A program made the translations under genes and the position numbers. DNA of 51,245 nt from Eubacteriaceae bacterium (GTDB lineage: Bacteria > Bacillota > Clostridia > Eubacteriales > Eubacteriaceae): assembly GCA_028705955.1 (NCBI GenBank), contig JAQWCN010000001.1, positions 5,247 to 56,491 of the forward strand, in the 5' to 3' direction. Under the pieces are notes generated by a model. That model saw nothing but the letters and a program-made list of their open reading frames with translations, ran no database searches and had not been told where the DNA came from. This document shows positions 22,201-28,612 of the stretch, in pieces (positions within the stretch are counted from its first letter, which is position 1; the number at the start of each line of letters is the position of its first letter).

Positions 22201-22729
22201 AGTGTATACTGTCCATGTGGTCCGGGGACAACTGATGATTACCAAGACCATTGACAATCAGTACTCCACCATCCGCAAAATCAATGCAAATCAAACTTTT
22301 GTGTTTAAGGTCGAACGCTACGACATGGACGCAAAAGGGGAAAAAGTGGGGGATACCCCAACCGACACTTTCTACGAAACCATCAACTTTGACGCCAACG
22401 CCGGAACCACAACCAGCAGCAAACTGATTTCCAACTTGAAAGCCGGTTTTTACACCGTCACCGAAGAAACAAAGTGGTCGCCGAAATACGTGATCGATGG
22501 CAGCACACCGGTTTCCCAGAGCTACTCCATCGGCATTGTCCAATCGACAGATGACAAAGGCGTGCGTACTTTTAACGGTTTGGAAGACATGAACAAGAAT
22601 CTGAAAGCAACCAACAAGTATGGAAAAGTTGCGGAAGGCAAACATTGTACCACTACCTACATGAATAAACGGACCGACTGGAACTGGCTCTCAGATACAG
22701 CCGCGGCGGTGAATGAATTTGTAAAATAA
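19202..22729 (+). CDS. Large secreted adhesin: fibro-slime/PA14-like domain plus SpaA/Cna-B-type prealbumin-fold domains; no C-terminal anchor
   Basis: The Sec signal is ...TNPVWA/EDT. The fibro-slime/PA14 signature reads GTDFYFGMRYDVDFTL...FTGDDDLWVILDGKTVLDMGGIHG. A Cna-B/SpaA-like block reads LTFNKVGK...ATFTIAKK...GTVTFPNLEVGEYVVKEETAPTGY. The C-terminus has pilin-like beta domains (GQLMITKTI...FVFKVERYD...GFYTVTEE). SD AAAGGAG lies upstream. Confidence 0.8.
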   Translation: MNAAIYQKRIIQIIGGLMIALVAMIGLTNPVWAEDTAPRTTVQENGAEVVRFDYKSSDVNVLVTLTNASDLPDNAVMSVTPVSLDNQEKGKVEEKAKEESKDVKSTKAYDIKFTVDGKEVEPGATVKVAVTTPQVQAGEKAAVYHVSDDKNSVDNMDANTSDQGQVDFNTNHFSRYVIINYSPNPVNVTIQRYYYSDGDSTNTADSNLQMIYKSSKTIKAQEDGKTYQLSGVDYNQDNYTFVKATKTTTVNGEQKTEDFSPSDLVVTGDTTISVYYTRAEATKSGDTTFYDYSIQKGINQAANYSNYTNNREETSAKKNARIAIHSSWTGTNVYSPLNGTAQSINGYDGGHDRDLYSIKQGIVVGTDSSGAVVYGKNTSGTTLSDPGLFTTDTKSGKTIMDDYQLTFKQTGDDYHLSTVNCKDTTHNTQVQNAGSNFLPLNNDTRKLTENNNNSGTDFYFGMRYDVDFTLGDYVGPLNYSFTGDDDLWVILDGKTVLDMGGIHGAVKGSVNLWTGDATYTGYQSHSTVESGTKTLSGEDGLYDLLGITDPSQLTDAQKSQKHTITILYMERGAGESNCNMNFTLPNAKVTEVTQVPKGDLTFNKVGKVETTDAGTPLADATFTIAKKDTPDAIIATATSDDSGTVTFPNLEVGEYVVKEETAPTGYACANQTFYVQVTLNEDGTTATAKMYSDEKYTQEVTQVDNYEINSHLLQQKTAHVTDWDNRIYQIDLYTSQTVPVLKEISGATIVDTIDSRFDVVDKDGNQLADGTAVDGGTLKYNEPGEAYIIWGSQVIPGNNDVTQGWHKTLYVKAKADYIGGNNVPTNVESKSGITVSGITKNFDNPKVNVKARFAMSNVTKTVFLGDTVDNQDSQNAMLTTAGIKDMIGGSYQSITAAADKLATQWFTKEAMGSGDQTTVNQMPANPTEEETVWYLKATYNLGQATEESTKNTTINNKGYISGDATANGVDSFVTGANDDQMVRNGVTTTSEPSVKGKEYGVYTVHVVRGQLMITKTIDNQYSTIRKINANQTFVFKVERYDMDAKGEKVGDTPTDTFYETINFDANAGTTTSSKLISNLKAGFYTVTEETKWSPKYVIDGSTPVSQSYSIGIVQSTDDKGVRTFNGLEDMNKNLKATNKYGKVAEGKHCTTTYMNKRTDWNWLSDTAAAVNEFVK

Positions 22730-22747
22730 AAGCGTTTGAACAACAAG

Positions 22748-22787
22748 AGGCCAGGGAGGGACGACAGTCCAGCCCTGGCCTTTTTAA
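22748..22787 (+). terminator. Intrinsic terminator of the adhesin gene
   Basis: AGGCCAGGG...CCCTGGCCT hairpin followed by TTTTT. Confidence 0.75.
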
Positions 22788-22899
22788 TGGAGCAATGGGC
22801 GCTTTTTATAAGGAATCGGTGAGTGTAAAATGTCAGGATAGATACAATAAAAAATTGAAGAAGGAAATTTCTCCATGGTGCAGGGCTTTGAAAATACAA

Positions 22900-22955
22900 A
22901 GAACCCCTTGTCATCGACAGCCTCAACGGAAGCGGTCACGATGACAAGGGGTTCT
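22900..22955 (-). terminator. Long-stem hairpin / probable terminator of the micropeptide operon
   Basis: A perfect 17-bp stem (AGAACCCCTTGTCATCG / CGATGACAAGGGGTTCT) encloses a 22-nt loop. On the minus strand it is followed by TTGTATTTTC. It begins 17 nt after the stop of micropeptide 1. Confidence 0.55.
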
Positions 22956-22971
22956 GTTTATAAAAAATCAC

Positions 22972-23055
22972 TTATTTTTCAGCTTTTAAAGCATCCAATT
23001 CAGCCTTGAGTTCTGCGATCTGTTTTAATAATTCATCATAAGGGTTAAAGTTCAT
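22972..23055 (-). CDS. Micropeptide 1 (27 aa): MNFNPYDELLKQIAELKAELDALKAEK
   Basis: Found by manual translation because it is below the ORF-track size cutoff. SD AAAGGAGA lies 7 nt before the ATG and the stop is TAA. It is paralogous to the two ORFs upstream. Confidence 0.6.
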   Translation of the reverse strand: MNFNPYDELLKQIAELKAELDALKAEK

Positions 23056-23123
23056 GTTTATTTCTCCTTTGTTTTTATATTTTGATACGAATTAAATTCT
23101 TTTATGGAATCAGATAAGTTCAA

Positions 23124-23207
23124 TTATCTGGATGCTTTCATGGATTCAACTTCAGCTTTGAGTTCCTGAATTTGTTTTAAAATTTCATTCATTGCATTGT
23201 AGCCCAT
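23124..23207 (-). CDS. Micropeptide 2 (27 aa): MGYNAMNEILKQIQELKAEVESMKASR
   Basis: Found by manual translation. SD AAAGGAGA lies 7 nt before the ATG and the stop is TAA. It shares the xYNxxxElLkqIqELKaEl core with its neighbours. Confidence 0.6.
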   Translation of the reverse strand: MGYNAMNEILKQIQELKAEVESMKASR

Positions 23208-23284
23208 TGAGTTTTCTCCTTTCTGTTTTACTTTCATTATAAGAGTTATCCGATATCCGGATGGATTTACACGTTAAAAACGGT

Positions 23285-23365
23285 TCAGGCGTTTTTCAGT
23301 GAAGCAAGTTCAGATTTTAATTCCTGGATTTCCTGGAGCAATACTTCGTATGGATTGTAATTCAT
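23285..23365 (-). CDS. Micropeptide 3 (26 aa): MNYNPYEVLLQEIQELKSELASLKNA
   Basis: Found by manual translation. SD AAAGGAGA lies 7 nt before the ATG and the stop is TGA. It shares 15 of 26 residues with micropeptide 1, although many codons differ synonymously. Confidence 0.6.
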   Translation of the reverse strand: MNYNPYEVLLQEIQELKSELASLKNA

Positions 23366-23510
23366 AGTGCGTCTCCTTTCTTTCAATGGCGGATCCAATC
23401 GGATTCGCAATGTCTGTAGGAACAAGATAAAAACAAATGATTAAATATACAATAAATGTAATAATTTCAAGATCAGCAAGTTGTTTCATTTGTTTTCATC
23501 TATGTGTAAT

Positions 23511-23539
23511 ATTATACAACCCGTTTTTGAGTTAGTCAA
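23511..23539 (-). promoter_or_regulatory. Near-consensus SigA promoter driving the micropeptide array
   Basis: The minus strand reads TTGACT, a 17-nt spacer (aactcaaaaacgggttg), then TATAAT. The predicted TSS is near 23503, about 140 nt upstream of micropeptide 3. Confidence 0.7.
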
Positions 23540-23567
23540 GCTTTCCTATGTACTTTATTTAAAACAA

Positions 23568-24212
23568 TTATAATGTAGCGTATACAGGAATCGCAATGCG
23601 TTTCTGGGCCTTGATTTCAGAGGTGAAACGGTCATTGGTTTCCTCCTGAATGAAGTTAAGAAAGCCTTGGGTTTCAGAAATTGGTATCTCAAAGTCCAGG
23701 GTTACTTTTTCGGCAAAGCTTTCGTTGCAGGGGGAAACGTTTCGGTCAGTCAGTTTGTTTTTGAGATTGCCATATTGGGGATAATCGATGGTCAGACGCA
23801 CGCAATCGGCCAGGGTTTCCCTGACGACGGTGGCGGTATCAAGAACGGCAGATGCAGATCCGGAATAAGCCCGGATCAGACCGCCAGCCCCCAGTTTGAT
23901 GCCGCCAAAATAACGGATGACCAGCACGAGGACATCTTTGAGTTCCCGGCGCTCAAGGACTTCCAAAATGGGTTTGCCGGCGGTGCCGGAAGGTTCCCCG
24001 TCATCACTGGCTTTTTGCCGGGCGGGCGTGGTGGACAGAATGTATGCCCAGCAGATGTGGTTGGCTTTATAATGGGTTTTGCGCATGGTGGCAAGGAGGG
24101 TTTCAGCCTGTTCCTCACTGGTAATGGGATAGGCCTGTCCGATGAAACGGGACTTTTTGATACGCGCTTCAGATTCGGAAAAACCGGTAATGGTTAAATA
24201 GTCAGGCTTCAT
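23568..24212 (-). CDS. YigZ/IMPACT-family protein (UPF0029)
   Basis: Matches the family in ...KKSRFIGQAYPITSEEQAETLL...HKANHICWAYIL...DDGEPSGTAGKPIL...LVLVIRYFGGIKLGAGGLIRAY. The start is placed at MKPDYL (nt 24212), overlapping the hflX stop. Confidence 0.85.
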   Translation of the reverse strand: MKPDYLTITGFSESEARIKKSRFIGQAYPITSEEQAETLLATMRKTHYKANHICWAYILSTTPARQKASDDGEPSGTAGKPILEVLERRELKDVLVLVIRYFGGIKLGAGGLIRAYSGSASAVLDTATVVRETLADCVRLTIDYPQYGNLKNKLTDRNVSPCNESFAEKVTLDFEIPISETQGFLNFIQEETNDRFTSEIKAQKRIAIPVYATL

Positions 24213-26010
24213 GGGGATCCTCCTGATAGGAAAGGTACAGGTGGGCGGGAAAATCCCGTCCGCTGCGAACACTCACCCGCGTTCCGGCATCGGTATAGGC
24301 TGTATTTATAATGTCGGCATCGTCGTGGAGGCGGGCCAGAACTTTGCTGTCTGCATAAGGAATCAAATAGGTATAGATTTGGGTTTGACCGTTCAGGTGA
24401 TCACTGACGGCAGCCATAAGCTCCGGAAGGCCGTCCCCGGTTCTGGCACTGATGACAAAAGCGCCAGTGCGTTTGGCCCGGAGGCGAAGACCGTCAGCGG
24501 CAGAGGGGAGAAGTTTGTCGACTTTATTGTACACAAGCAGACAGTCGACACCCTGGGCCCCGATGTCCCGGGTCACTTGCTGGACGACATCGATGTGTCG
24601 GGCAGCGTTGGGATTGGCGGCGTCAATCACGTGGAGGAGCAGGTCGGCGCTTTGAACTTCCGACAAGGTGGTCTGAAAGGCGTTGATCAAATCGTGGGGA
24701 AGTTTTTCAATAAATCCAACCGTATCTGAGAGAAGATAGCGGCCGTATTGGGGACGGATTTTACGAACAGTGGCATCCAGGGTGACGAAGAGGCCATCTT
24801 TCATGGCCACGTCACTTTCGGTCAGGGTGTTGAACAAGGTGCTTTTGCCGGAGTTTGTGTAGCCGACGAGGCTGACGGTCCGGATATGGTTTTTGGAGCG
24901 GCGCTTGGCGCTCAGGGTATTGGTCTTGACCGTTTGGTTGAGCTGCCGGCGCAGTTCATCCACCTGGCGGCGAATGTGGCGGCGGTCAGTTTCAAGTTGT
25001 TTTTCACCGGGCCCCCGGGTGCCGATGCCTCCGCCGGTCCGGGAGAGGACAAGGCCCAGGCCTTTAAGGTGACTCAGGCGGTAACGCTGCTGGGCCAGTT
25101 CAACCTGAAGTTTGCCTTCCCGGGTGGTGGCGTGCCGGGCGAAGATATCGAGGATGACAGTGGTGCGGTCGATGGTCTTGACACCGGTCAAGGTTTCAAT
25201 GGTGGCAATCTGGCTGCTGACCAGTTCGTCATTGGTGATGATCAGATTGGCGTTGAGATTTTGAACGGTCCGGACCGTTTCCAGAATTTTCCCTTTGCCC
25301 AGATAAGTTAAGGCGTCGGGCTGGAGCCGGTTTTGTACAGTTTGTCCGACGACGGTGCACCCGGCGGTGGTGGCCAGCCGGGCCAGTTCGTTCATGGAGT
25401 CGTCGATGGCGATGGCTTCGGTCCGGCTGGTGGGTGCGACGCCAAGCAGCAGGGCGCGCTCACGTTCACCTTCGGTGTGATAAAACTGATCCATTGTTTT
25501 GCGAAGGTCCCGGTTGACCCGATGGACACAGGCGCTTAAGGGCACTTCGTTTAAGGTTTTGAGATCCGGCAGGATCGATAAACGGTAACTCAGGCCGTCA
25601 GCGGTGCAAAGGGGCAGGGCAATGCCAAAACGGTCGGAGGTGCCGGCTTTAACCCCAATGGCAATCATGGCCTGGAGCCGCTCCTGCCTGGCGGAGGAGA
25701 GGTCTTCTTCCGACAGCACCGGGGAGCCGCTGGGATGGGTATGGATGGCCCGGAGCCGGGAGAGTCCCGGACCGCCGGAAGTGGTGCGGGCGGGGAAACG
25801 GGCGCTGGTGGCATCCCCGACGCATACGTCTTCCACGATGCCCCGGTCGTTAATGAGCAGCAAAATTTCCCGGTTCAGTTGAAGGGTGGTATCGTGGAGC
25901 AGGGTCAGAATATCCGGGTCCAGAATCCCTTCTGTCAGTTTCGTTTTTTTGAGAGCATTCAGCTTTTTTAGGACAGTGCGCCGGATGCCGTCGGTTTGGC
26001 GATCGGTCAT
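24202..26010 (-). CDS. hflX: GTPase HflX with an N-terminal extension of about 180 aa carrying a JAB/MPN (RadC-like) metalloprotease motif
   Basis: The HflX N-domain and G-domain are present (VSLVGYTNSGKSTLFNTLT; DTVGFI; NKVD). The strong SD AAGGAGGAGG precedes the first ATG. Residues 90-103 read HTHPSGSPVLSEED, which fits HxHx7Sx2D. Confidence 0.85.
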   Translation of the reverse strand: MTDRQTDGIRRTVLKKLNALKKTKLTEGILDPDILTLLHDTTLQLNREILLLINDRGIVEDVCVGDATSARFPARTTSGGPGLSRLRAIHTHPSGSPVLSEEDLSSARQERLQAMIAIGVKAGTSDRFGIALPLCTADGLSYRLSILPDLKTLNEVPLSACVHRVNRDLRKTMDQFYHTEGERERALLLGVAPTSRTEAIAIDDSMNELARLATTAGCTVVGQTVQNRLQPDALTYLGKGKILETVRTVQNLNANLIITNDELVSSQIATIETLTGVKTIDRTTVILDIFARHATTREGKLQVELAQQRYRLSHLKGLGLVLSRTGGGIGTRGPGEKQLETDRRHIRRQVDELRRQLNQTVKTNTLSAKRRSKNHIRTVSLVGYTNSGKSTLFNTLTESDVAMKDGLFVTLDATVRKIRPQYGRYLLSDTVGFIEKLPHDLINAFQTTLSEVQSADLLLHVIDAANPNAARHIDVVQQVTRDIGAQGVDCLLVYNKVDKLLPSAADGLRLRAKRTGAFVISARTGDGLPELMAAVSDHLNGQTQIYTYLIPYADSKVLARLHDDADIINTAYTDAGTRVSVRSGRDFPAHLYLSYQEDPHEA

Positions 26011-27279: not shown

Positions 27280-27357
27280 GATAAAAACACAATGTCACAA
27301 CCGGTATGACAGATGAACAAAAAGGTTTGACAGCATTATCGCAGATGGAGGAGATGT

Positions 27358-28612
27358 ATGAATAAATTATGGGAATATATCAAGCTGGCACTGGAAGGGC
27401 TGAAGGCTGATAAAAAAAGAACGGTGCTCACGACGCTGGGAATTGTTGTCGGGATAGCCTCGGTGATTATCATCAACACCTTTGGAACGTTTGTGTCGGA
27501 TATGCTCAAAAAAAAGTAATGAAGCCGATCTGCTGGGGCAGAACATTCAGATTAAACTGATTGACGCGGAGGCGAAGGACGACGGGGATGATGCCAGCAT
27601 CAGCGATACGGTCATTGACCCGGCCGATTACATTACCGATGAAATGATCAGTCAGTATAAGAGTAAATACGGCACCAGCATTGTGGGCATTGAGCAAAGT
27701 TCGGAACTCAATTCCTACGGCAAAGTCAAAAGCGGACTCCAGGAACAAAAATTTAAACTGACAGGAATCAACGGGGATTACTCCAATGTGAAGGCTGTTA
27801 ACATAACGATGGGGCGCAGCATTATGGACCGGGATGACGAAGGGACCAAAAATGTCATTGTTATATCCAGTGATCTGTCAAAAAAACTGTACGGGGAGAA
27901 TGCCTATCCCATTGGTCAGAAGCTCGCAGTAGAAACCAATTATGGAACCCGGGATCTTTATGTGATCGGTGTGTTTAGCAAAAAATTAACGGAAAGCAGC
28001 CGCGAATTTGCTTACATTCCCATGGCCACGGCCAATGATATCTCAGGAAGTGTGTCCACCGGATACCCGATGATCACGGTCATGGTCAAAAACAGTGAGG
28101 ATCTGAAGGCCTTTATGAATAAGACGTCCAGCTTTTTCTCTTCCTGGTACAAGGGAAAAACGTGTAAAGTGAGTGTCCAGGAGGAAAAAGAAGTGCAGAA
28201 AAAAAACCAGGATAGTTTTCAGATGATCTCAACGATGCTGACCGTCATTGGGGGAATTTCCCTGCTGGTCGGAGGCATTGGCGTTATGAATGTCATGCTG
28301 ATTTCGGTGACGGAAAGGACGCGGGAAATCGGTATCCGCAAGGCGCTGGGGGCTCCCAACAGTGCCATTCAAATTCAATTTATTGTGGAATCCATGATTA
28401 TGTGTCTGGCAGGGGGGATCATCGGGATGGCCATCGGCTTTGCAGCGGTTTATATCACGTTTGCGCTCTTTCTTAACACAAGTTTTACGATTCATCCAGA
28501 GGTTGTGCTCATTGCCATTGGTTTTTCCATGGCCATTGGGGTATTTTTCGGGGTTTATCCAGCCAATAGAGCGGCCAGACTTAACCCGATTGAAGCACTG
28601 CGCTACGAATAA
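27358..28612 (+). pseudogene. MacB/FtsX-type ABC permease, frameshifted at an A8 run (27508-27515)
   Basis: Frame 1 encodes MNKLWEYIKLALEGLKADKKRTVLTTLGIVVGIASVIIINTFG...MLKKK*, with its stop at 27517. Frame 2 continues as SNEADLLGQNIQIKL... through the MacB periplasmic domain and the FtsX C-terminal TMs (REIGIRKALGA). Deleting one A would restore a single ORF. Confidence 0.75.

Follow-up and report, generated by a model that had tools for sequence, protein, structure and literature searches.

Three tandem paralogous micropeptide genes with a leucine-zipper pattern, predicted between yigZ and an adhesin gene of a Eubacteriaceae bacterium

The window analysed here is the whole 51,245-nucleotide stretch of contig JAQWCN010000001.1 of a Eubacteriaceae bacterium (assembly GCA_028705955.1), to which all positions refer unless another contig is named. 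Within it, 838 nt separate the stop codon of a SpaA-domain adhesin gene (22729) from that of yigZ (23568), and three small open reading frames (ORFs) on the minus strand, P3, P2 and P1 in the order of reading, sit in this interval, with yigZ on one side and the convergent adhesin gene on the other. In public assemblies the locus is either empty or has wrong ORFs called, of 37, 59 or 44 amino acids (aa). An earlier reading of the sequence, referred to here as the first-pass annotation, had proposed that the three ORFs are tandem paralogous genes for coiled-coil micropeptides; direct reading of the window finds all three, at the positions and with the translations proposed, and the comparisons set out below support their being tandem paralogues. 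The features of the predicted unit, in the order of transcription, are as follows.

23534-23539, minus strand: -35 hexamer TTGACT of a predicted promoter (TTGACT-17-TATAAT, 11 of 12 consensus positions)
23511-23516, minus strand: -10 hexamer TATAAT of the same predicted promoter (promoter match)
23372-23379, minus strand: Shine-Dalgarno (SD) sequence of P3, AAAGGAGA (sequence match)
23285-23365, minus strand: P3, probable gene, 26 aa, MNYNPYEVLLQEIQELKSELASLKNA; SD, paralogue and homologue comparison; no strain polymorphism
23215-23222, minus strand: SD sequence of P2, AAAGGAGA (sequence match)
23124-23207, minus strand: P2, probable gene, 27 aa, MGYNAMNEILKQIQELKAEVESMKASR; a single polymorphism, synonymous (CAA>CAG)
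23063-23070, minus strand: SD sequence of P1, AAAGGAGA (sequence match)
22972-23055, minus strand: P1, probable gene, 27 aa, MNFNPYDELLKQIAELKAELDALKAEK; SD, paralogue and homologue comparison; no strain polymorphism
22891-22954, minus strand: predicted intrinsic terminator, a G+C-rich outer stem of about 15 bp and a structured loop, followed by TTTGTATTTT (-35.7 kcal/mol)

The sequence AAAGGAGA precedes each of the three ORFs; the spacing of 7 nt to the ATG given in the first-pass annotation holds for P1 and P2, but is 6 nt for P3. AGGAG, with a start codon 4-11 nt downstream, is also located 5' of most long genes in the window, and the P1-P3 sites can thus be regarded as normal strong ribosome-binding sites for this organism. 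Taken together, the promoter and terminator matches delimit a predicted transcript of about 615 nt, of which the leader makes up about 140 nt, both the activity of the promoter and the transcript ends being deduced from these motifs. A consensus terminator scanner skipped 22891-22954 because the loop is longer than 8 nt. There is no hairpin in the interval between yigZ and the unit, so that read-through from hflX-yigZ may also occur. The opposite strand has a single promoter-like site, which matches 9 of 12 positions and lies within the terminator.

The similarity of the three ORFs to one another stands out in the window. The window has 509 ORFs of 20-60 aa that start with ATG, and of the 129,286 pairs that these form the three P pairs are the most similar, with 14, 13 and 11 identities after Met1, the next-best pair having 9; a degenerate DNA motif made from the three ORFs has three matches in the window and none in 100 shuffles. 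The resemblance to which the first-pass annotation drew attention is, thus, far better than that of shuffled AT-rich sequence. A profile made from the three peptides gave no further match within the window. The paralogues are 56-62% identical at the nucleotide level and share 12-15 of 26 residues (46-58%). The proposed identity of P1 and P3 at 15 of 26 residues is borne out, with 10 of those 15 encoded by different codons, including four leucine codons that differ at two or three positions. The proportion of synonymous differences between paralogues (pS) is 0.47-1.18, i.e. saturated, versus 0.26-0.36 for nonsynonymous differences (pN). When the observed differences were placed randomly in 20,000 trials, the observed amino acid identity was never reached for P1-P3, and was reached in 0.09% of trials for P1-P2 and 2.3% for P2-P3. 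The similarity between the repeats begins at the SD sequence and ends at the stop codon, and the other two frames of the P ORFs contain stops and have much lower similarity.

Related units are present elsewhere. An exhaustive HMMER search with the three-peptide profile against 1.84 billion representative proteins gave, besides an over-extended version of the P2 ORF, two genuine relatives, both in mis-called or barely called ORFs: P0127, the final 28 residues of which are MNYNPYTELLGEIRSLRAEVESLKKARD, and P0134, which is MNSTYYNPVNELIKEIKELRAEVQQLKESK. On the 543-nt metagenomic contig L040 the unit is complete and has two copies, in the order promoter, leader, SD-PA, spacer, SD-PB and terminator; the PB peptide is MNYNPYTELLEEIRSLRAEVEALKASR. 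In L041-L043 a unit with one copy lies between pdxT and a SIR2 gene; its promoter is TTGACG-17-TATAAT, its leader has about 130 nt, and it too has a terminator. L041-L043 include a contig of GCA_029782595.1, which also has P0005, one of the nearest relatives of the YigZ protein. The promoter motif TTGAC..TGTATAAT/TGTATACT occurs at the equivalent relative place in L040 and L041, as do terminators. The window, L040 and L041 thus have a common architecture, i.e. a promoter, a leader of about 130-140 nt, three, two or one SD-ORF modules, and a terminator. The genomic neighbourhoods, by contrast, are unrelated, with pdxT and SIR2 in L041 versus yigZ and the adhesin gene in the window. The nearest YigZ homologues, about 60% identical, are from Eubacterium sp., Acetobacterium and Pseudoramibacter, all of them Eubacteriaceae; in the nearest YigZ relatives examined the peptide array is absent after hflX-yigZ, where yebC or a transposase gene is found instead, implying that the position of the family is not conserved. 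The unit behaves as an autonomous cassette with one, two or three ORFs.

Comparison of the six copies from the three lineages points in the same direction as that of the paralogues. In all 15 pairwise comparisons pN/pS is <1, and the two L040 copies differ with a pS of 0.53 and a pN of 0.04. The SD sequence and ATG are kept in every copy, and length differences among the copies are of whole codons. Frame-breaking indels, a concern raised in the first-pass annotation, are not found in the homologous loci, the frame being kept in both L040 and L041. The codon differences, the pN/pS values and the in-frame indels together support the earlier suggestion that it is the peptide, and not an RNA, that is under selection.

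Variation between strains is also informative. Contigs of the same species were fetched from 20 or so assemblies, one of the contigs being labelled as from a fermentation metagenome, and six strain variants were compared. There is one polymorphic site in the 249 nt of the three ORFs, the synonymous CAA>CAG change in P2, versus 13 in the 227 nt of the two spacers plus terminator (Fisher p = 5e-4). The promoter plus leader has none in 160 nt (p = 0.001 versus the spacers plus terminator). Beyond the unit, the segment 22730-22889, between the convergent terminators of the adhesin gene and of the peptide unit, is a strain-level hotspot, with 20% differences and a 20-nt indel between strains; the flanking genes differ by <1.5%.

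On this evidence P1-P3 are very probably translated protein-coding genes. The locus could instead specify an RNA that is not translated and in which one element is repeated three times, or the frames could have arisen by chance in AT-rich intergenic DNA. The P ORFs are, indeed, below gene-finder size, the unit is known from three lineages only and from sequence alone, and the whole transcript folds better than shuffled sequence (z = -3.6). The excess folding energy, however, resides largely in the terminator and the leader hairpin and not in the ORFs; neither a structured RNA nor chance accounts readily for the same residues being specified by different codons, for pN/pS <1 throughout and whole-codon indels, or for a similarity confined to the region from SD to stop, with the alternative frames interrupted and far less similar. 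Such non-coding explanations are consequently considered quite improbable.

The ORFs that gene callers have placed at the locus were considered separately. They are as follows.

23310-23489, minus strand: hydrophobic 59-aa ORF over P3 in another frame, called in L001, L004 and L013; not supported by L040/L041
23124-23237, minus strand: 37-aa extended form of P2, gene-caller product; not supported by L040/L041
22875-23009, plus strand: 44-aa ORF antisense to the terminator, gene-caller product

All three look like artefacts of minimum-length rules. The 10-codon upstream extension of P2 was rejected, as it lacks an SD sequence and has a double substitution in other strains (P0121). The real gene might be the 59-aa ORF at 23310-23489, which is called in several assemblies and has a hydrophobic stretch, such that a type I toxin-like membrane peptide could be envisaged. 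However, this ORF lacks an SD sequence, its ATG lies within the stem of the leader hairpin (described below), its frame has a stop after 11 codons in L040 and reads ATG-TGA in L041, and it has no Pfam or NCBIfam match, so that the chance of its being the true gene is next to negligible. A type I toxin was more generally rejected, given that the P peptides are hydrophilic, the hydrophobic 59-aa ORF is not conserved, and the promoter-like site on the opposite strand reaches only 9/12.

The family to which P1-P3 would belong appears to be new. No P peptide reaches the cut-off of a curated family in Pfam-A or NCBIfam, and there is no PHROGs match; the Pfam and NCBIfam matches obtained are to generic coiled-coil models only (12-18 bits, versus cut-offs of 22-50), the sub-threshold Pfam models being of leucine-zipper or coiled-coil type, e.g. 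HALZ, ZapB, DivIC and L29. The view of the first-pass annotation that the family is undescribed is thus supported, there being no match to a Pfam, NCBIfam or PHROG family or to a named protein; a literature search with peptide substrings found no paper. A second profile search with an improved alignment returned only the three ORFs already known, a protein search with the three peptides concatenated gave no match, a related-locus search with the three-peptide alignment had no confirmed result in viral or genome contigs, and blastn of the unit against plasmid and phage records gave no match. Scans of genome and of metagenome contigs with the degenerate motif ATG-x-[FY]-N-x4-h-L-x2-h-x-E-L-[KR]-x-E gave 10 matches each, all by chance, in that they were within longer ORFs or lacked an SD sequence. 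This motif is too strict, since it would miss L040 (serine at position 15, arginine encoded by CGT) and L041 (a three-codon N-terminal insertion), and the negative scans consequently do not imply that the family is a rare one. When the motif was widened to fit the six sequences, it gave nothing in viral contigs and, among the fetched loci, true copies only. The sequences define a new small-protein family, so far narrow in distribution, in Eubacteriaceae-like fermenters.

The profile also matched larger proteins (P0122-P0133), which are repetitive coiled-coil proteins with generic family matches only, and these were treated as convergent. Some resemble the micropeptides locally: P0129 has the 11-mer LKQIAELKAEL in common with P1, P0131 has AMNELNKQVQELKAEVASLKAEK where P2 has AMNEILKQIQELKAEVESMKASR, and P0125 has GYNEM..KQVQEL. 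The likenesses of P0125, P0129 and P0131 were likewise treated as convergent, though for P0125 and P0131 there may be homology.

With respect to structure, an AlphaFold2 model of the 37-aa P2 ORF has one helix, over peptide residues 5-26, with a per-residue confidence (pLDDT) of at least 90 for 20 residues. The hydrophobic residues at positions 9, 13, 16, 20 and 23, and the absence of cysteine and of a hydrophobic segment, all proposed earlier, are readable in the sequences, and a heptad-patterned amphipathic helix after a conserved N-cap is supported. When the six sequences are aligned in a register with a at 6/13/20 and d at 9/16/23, position a is Y/M/V6, I13 and L/V20, and position d is L/I9, L16 and L/M23, in six of six; position e is L/I, K/R and K, and position g is E/Q and E. 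The E/Q at g12 is thus paired with K/R at e17, and E at g19 with K at e24, E19 and K24 being invariant. Positions a, d, e and g have a mean column entropy of 0.55 bits, versus 1.39 at b, c and f (Mann-Whitney p = 0.007, which is indicative only given that the sequences are related). By established coiled-coil rules, an acidic residue at g and a basic residue at e five positions on attract each other across a coiled coil when the helices run parallel and in register, while in an antiparallel arrangement they repel. The conservation of a/d/e/g, with acidic residues or glutamine at g and basic residues at e, is the signature of a parallel leucine zipper, as read from the aligned sequences. The conserved [YF]-N-P ahead of the helix would fit an N-cap with proline at N1, which agrees with where the helix starts in the model. 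The PDB entries best matched by the family profile are an engineered NEMO construct, via its GCN4-like adaptor segments, a helix designed de novo, and the designed coiled coils CC-pIL and CC-Di.

The GCN4-type, CC-Di and CC-pIL zippers are indeed alike in having beta-branched or aliphatic residues at a, leucine at d, glutamate at g and lysine or arginine at e. They differ in having at least four heptads and in being eukaryotic or synthetic, whereas the peptides here would be free-standing bacterial products with an N-cap and about 2.6 heptads; the likeness is one of pattern convergence, not of homology. The helix spans about 2.6 heptads, which is at the lower limit for autonomous coiled-coil stability. 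Docking to a partner is therefore favoured, to the extent of being at least as likely as free oligomers.

The composition of the peptides bears on whether they might act outside the cell. They have no signal peptide, 30% large hydrophobic residues, a net charge of 0 to -2 and a hydrophobic moment of 0.13-0.25; being hydrophilic and of low moment, they are unlikely to act on membranes or as surfactants, and are by default taken to be cytoplasmic. The alternative is that they are secreted leaderless amphipathic peptides, either surfactants or cytolysins like the phenol-soluble modulins (PSMs) or a multi-peptide leaderless bacteriocin, exported by an ABC transporter. The layout of the locus is that of the psm-alpha operon of Staphylococcus, i.e. 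tandem paralogous helical peptides of about 20-27 aa with their own SD sequences, no signal peptide and one short transcript, and multi-peptide leaderless bacteriocins are organised in a similar manner; there are also genes for an HlyD/YknX-like adaptor and a MacB/FtsX-type permease about 3 kb off in the window. However, PSMs are exported, act as surfactants or cytolysins, and have a high moment and a hydrophobic face that is broad, whereas the hydrophobic stripe here is confined to the narrow a/d face. The fraction of large hydrophobic residues, 0.30, compares with 0.42-0.50 in PSMs and delta-toxin, and the moment with 0.40-0.60 in PSM-alpha1, PSM-alpha3 and delta-toxin. There is no sequence similarity to PSMs and no linked exporter, the phylum being the same and the class different. 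With respect to a PSM exporter of the Pmt type, there is no transporter beside the L041 unit, and the MacB-type permease gene of the window, 3 kb away, is frameshifted and has no adjoining ATPase gene. Bacteriocins of the aureocin A70 and garvicin KS type are strongly cationic, tryptophan- and glycine-rich and of 30-50 aa, and have linked transporter and immunity genes; the peptides here have no tryptophan and a net charge of 0 to -2, and the single-copy L041 unit, between pdxT and the SIR2 gene, has neither a transporter nor an immunity gene beside it. Secretion is accordingly considered improbable.

Still less probable, to the point of being very improbable, is that the peptides are precursors of ribosomally synthesised and post-translationally modified peptides (RiPPs), modified by a maturase and exported, with the helix serving as a leader or follower recognition element. 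RiPP precursors are often tandem paralogues, and P2 has a weak, sub-threshold match to the radical SAM (rSAM) RiPP precursor family NF050045 (13.7 bits, versus a cut-off of 50). No maturase, protease or exporter gene adjoins the unit in the genomic contexts examined, however, the radical-SAM gene of L041 being that of an NrdG-type activase beside nrdD; moreover, the peptides have no cysteine, and their variable part is the solvent face of the helix rather than a core peptide.

The Spo0E-like aspartyl-phosphate phosphatases are also small helical proteins of Firmicutes, to helix 1 of which the peptides have a loose resemblance. Spo0E-family proteins are about twice as long, and are helical hairpins with an SQELD motif; by contrast, SQELD is absent from six of six peptides, the model is of a single helix, and there is no Pfam match. 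The first-pass annotation had been right to discount both the PSM and the Spo0E resemblances, there being no Pfam match and both hydrophobicity and moment being well below those of PSMs.

Three aspects of the unit went beyond the first-pass annotation, i.e. the relatives with one and two copies, the spurious 59-aa ORF over P3, and the leader of about 140 nt with a conserved 5' hairpin. The features of the leader are as follows.

23425-23501, minus strand: predicted 5'-terminal leader hairpin with a 16-bp stem (arms 23501-23486 and 23440-23425) and a 45-nt loop (predicted fold, -16.2 kcal/mol)
23488-23498, minus strand: 11-mer TGAAAACAAAT, present in all three leaders (also L040 48-58 and L041 3885-3895)
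23389-23408, minus strand: second, small leader hairpin, GCGAAUCC-GAUU-GGAUCCGC (predicted, -7.3 kcal/mol)

The first hairpin begins no more than a few nucleotides from the predicted transcription start. Its arms are the best-conserved part of the whole locus: when the window is compared with L040, 20/21 positions are identical in the 5' arm and 13/14 in the 3' arm, versus 39% identity in the hairpin loop, 48% in the rest of the leader, 52% in the spacer that follows the first ORF and 60-65% in the ORFs themselves. The single difference in the 3' arm, U versus C opposite G, leaves pairing intact, and the hairpin has no polymorphism in the six strain variants. There is one exact occurrence of TGAAAACAAAT in the 51-kb window. 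At the 5' end of the L041 leader a different hairpin, of 8 bp, is predicted, the loop and 3' side of which contain TGAAAACAAAT. All three leaders also have a small hairpin 25-45 nt 5' of the first SD sequence, with no sequence relationship between the three; three leader sequences are too few for a covariation test.

A stem-loop at the very 5' end has the look of Firmicutes mRNA stabilisers; in Bacillus the ermC and aprE mRNAs, for instance, are shielded by 5' stem-loops from decay that depends on the 5' end. The stem-loop, together with the strong promoter, SD sequences and terminator, suggests a highly expressed unit. The conservation of the sequence of the arms exceeds the needs of pairing, and could be due to an operator, to the binding of a protein or to riboregulation; since the arms are conserved beyond the ORFs, part of the function of the locus may lie in RNA or DNA. 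When the leader motif was compared by eye with CodY, cre and Rex boxes, none gave a fit good enough to be claimed.

It may be, then, that the transcript is a dual-function RNA, which codes for the peptides and has a leader, with its 5' hairpin and TGAAAACAAAT, that is also a riboregulator or a protein-binding RNA or DNA operator, in which case the main phenotype could be that of the RNA. The arms, nearly identical where loop, remaining leader and ORFs have diverged, are in accord with such a role, as are TGAAAACAAAT, found once in 51 kb yet in all three leaders, and the freedom of promoter and leader from strain polymorphism. The leader is, moreover, long for ORFs of 26-30 codons. Precedents are available in SR1/SR1P and SR7/SR7P of Bacillus subtilis, in which a short RNA with a transcription unit of its own codes for a small protein (PMC10730256), and in AzuCR of Escherichia coli, a 164-nt RNA encoding AzuC, of 28 aa and with an amphipathic helix (bioRxiv 10.1101/2021.04.27.441574).

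The unit shares with these systems a stand-alone organisation with its own promoter and terminator, and an untranslated part that is long relative to the ORF and here highly conserved; in prediction, it is a short unit with its own promoter and terminator that codes for a small protein and is conserved in three lineages. SR1P, SR7P and AzuC are very small cytosolic peptides that bind a larger protein, partner binding by the peptides here being a proposal only. SR1, SR7 and AzuCR differ in having a single ORF rather than an array of paralogues and have no sequence similarity to the unit, and base-pairing by the leader is here only possible. Other observations tell against an RNA function. A search of the whole window with Rfam at the gathering score gave no match, and at E <= 10 the region 22700-23700 gave snoRNA and miRNA noise matches only, none of them relevant; the stem of the 5' hairpin differs in L041, where TGAAAACAAAT falls in the loop and 3' side, and a single structure common to the leaders is thus lacking; there is no target to propose; and a hairpin starting at the 5' end fits a simple stabiliser equally well. 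A dual-function RNA is, on balance, unlikely, albeit a serious candidate; it is compatible with coding, and adds to rather than replaces the interpretation of the ORFs as genes.

By sequence and by defining features the peptide unit belongs to none of the systems with which it was compared. As a whole, it is best explained as a self-contained small-protein operon of abundant cytoplasmic micro-zippers, an explanation to which about an even chance is given. A sigma-A-type promoter would give rise to an mRNA of about 615 nt, for which the most economical role of the 5'-terminal hairpin would be protection of the 5' end, so favouring mRNA stability. The three ORFs would be translated independently, each from a strong SD sequence, with the transcript ending at a strong intrinsic terminator. 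The products would be cytoplasmic peptides of 26-27 residues, each comprising an N-cap, M-[NG]-[YF]-N-[PA], and one alpha-helix of about 22 residues, i.e. some 2.6 heptads of a canonical leucine zipper. The a/d/e/g face would then enable formation of parallel homo- or hetero-oligomeric coiled coils, or docking on a helical or coiled-coil region of a larger protein so as to modulate it. If the ORFs are coding, action via this face, by oligomerising or by docking, is put at an even chance or slightly below.

Several considerations weigh against the micro-zipper operon. The unit is known from its sequence alone, and the family has been found in three lineages only, such that there is little to compare and the sequences lack independence. 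The single-chain AlphaFold model is silent on oligomerisation, a zipper of about 2.6 heptads is near the limit of stability, and no conserved neighbouring gene hints at a partner. Further, the nucleotides of the hairpin arms are better conserved than those of the ORFs, and a role as an mRNA stabiliser alone needs no such conservation. The strongest form of the proposal is that abundant peptides of 26-30 residues are the smallest free-standing natural bacterial leucine zippers, either forming parallel homo- or hetero-oligomers, such that the three diverged paralogues would allow mixed assemblies, or acting as dominant modulators that plug into the coiled coil of a larger protein, and that with a regulatory 5' hairpin their transcript would be a dual-function RNA with an array of paralogues; this is considered unlikely.

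The wider neighbourhood has features of its own. The segment 14769-22729 (plus strand), beside the peptide unit, looks like a surface-protein island, which has a 1175-aa SpaA-domain protein, a MucBP-domain protein, a regulator with BTAD and degenerate GGDEF regions, and several ORFs that match nothing in Pfam; the nearest relatives, L036 and L038, lack this island at hflX-yigZ. HflX (24202-26010, minus strand) has 602 aa, including an N-terminal extension of about 200 residues with a weak Prok-JAB match (residues 87-122, E = 0.005), and is equally long in Eubacteriaceae relatives (604-609 aa). The MacB/FtsX-type permease gene (27340-27560, plus strand) is split into ORFs of 53 and 376 aa by one extra A: a poly-A tract near 27507-27515 is A8 in the window versus A7 in L009 (GCA_040765585.1), where the intact gene encodes 417 aa. 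This difference could reflect a phase-variable tract, a pseudogene or an assembly error.

Thousands of families of unannotated bacterial small proteins exist, and genes of 26-27 codons, as here, fall under the standard length limit of gene finders. The present case shows that, even where expression data are not to hand, coding status can be established by comparing paralogues and a small number of homologous loci. The family has a very clear structural signature, i.e. an N-cap and a minimal parallel zipper. Its conserved 5' hairpin makes the unit a compact system for the study of mRNA 5'-end elements or dual-function RNAs in Clostridia and, if self-assembly or docking to a partner proves true, the peptides would represent a natural minimal coiled-coil module, useful for small-protein biology and as a reference for design.

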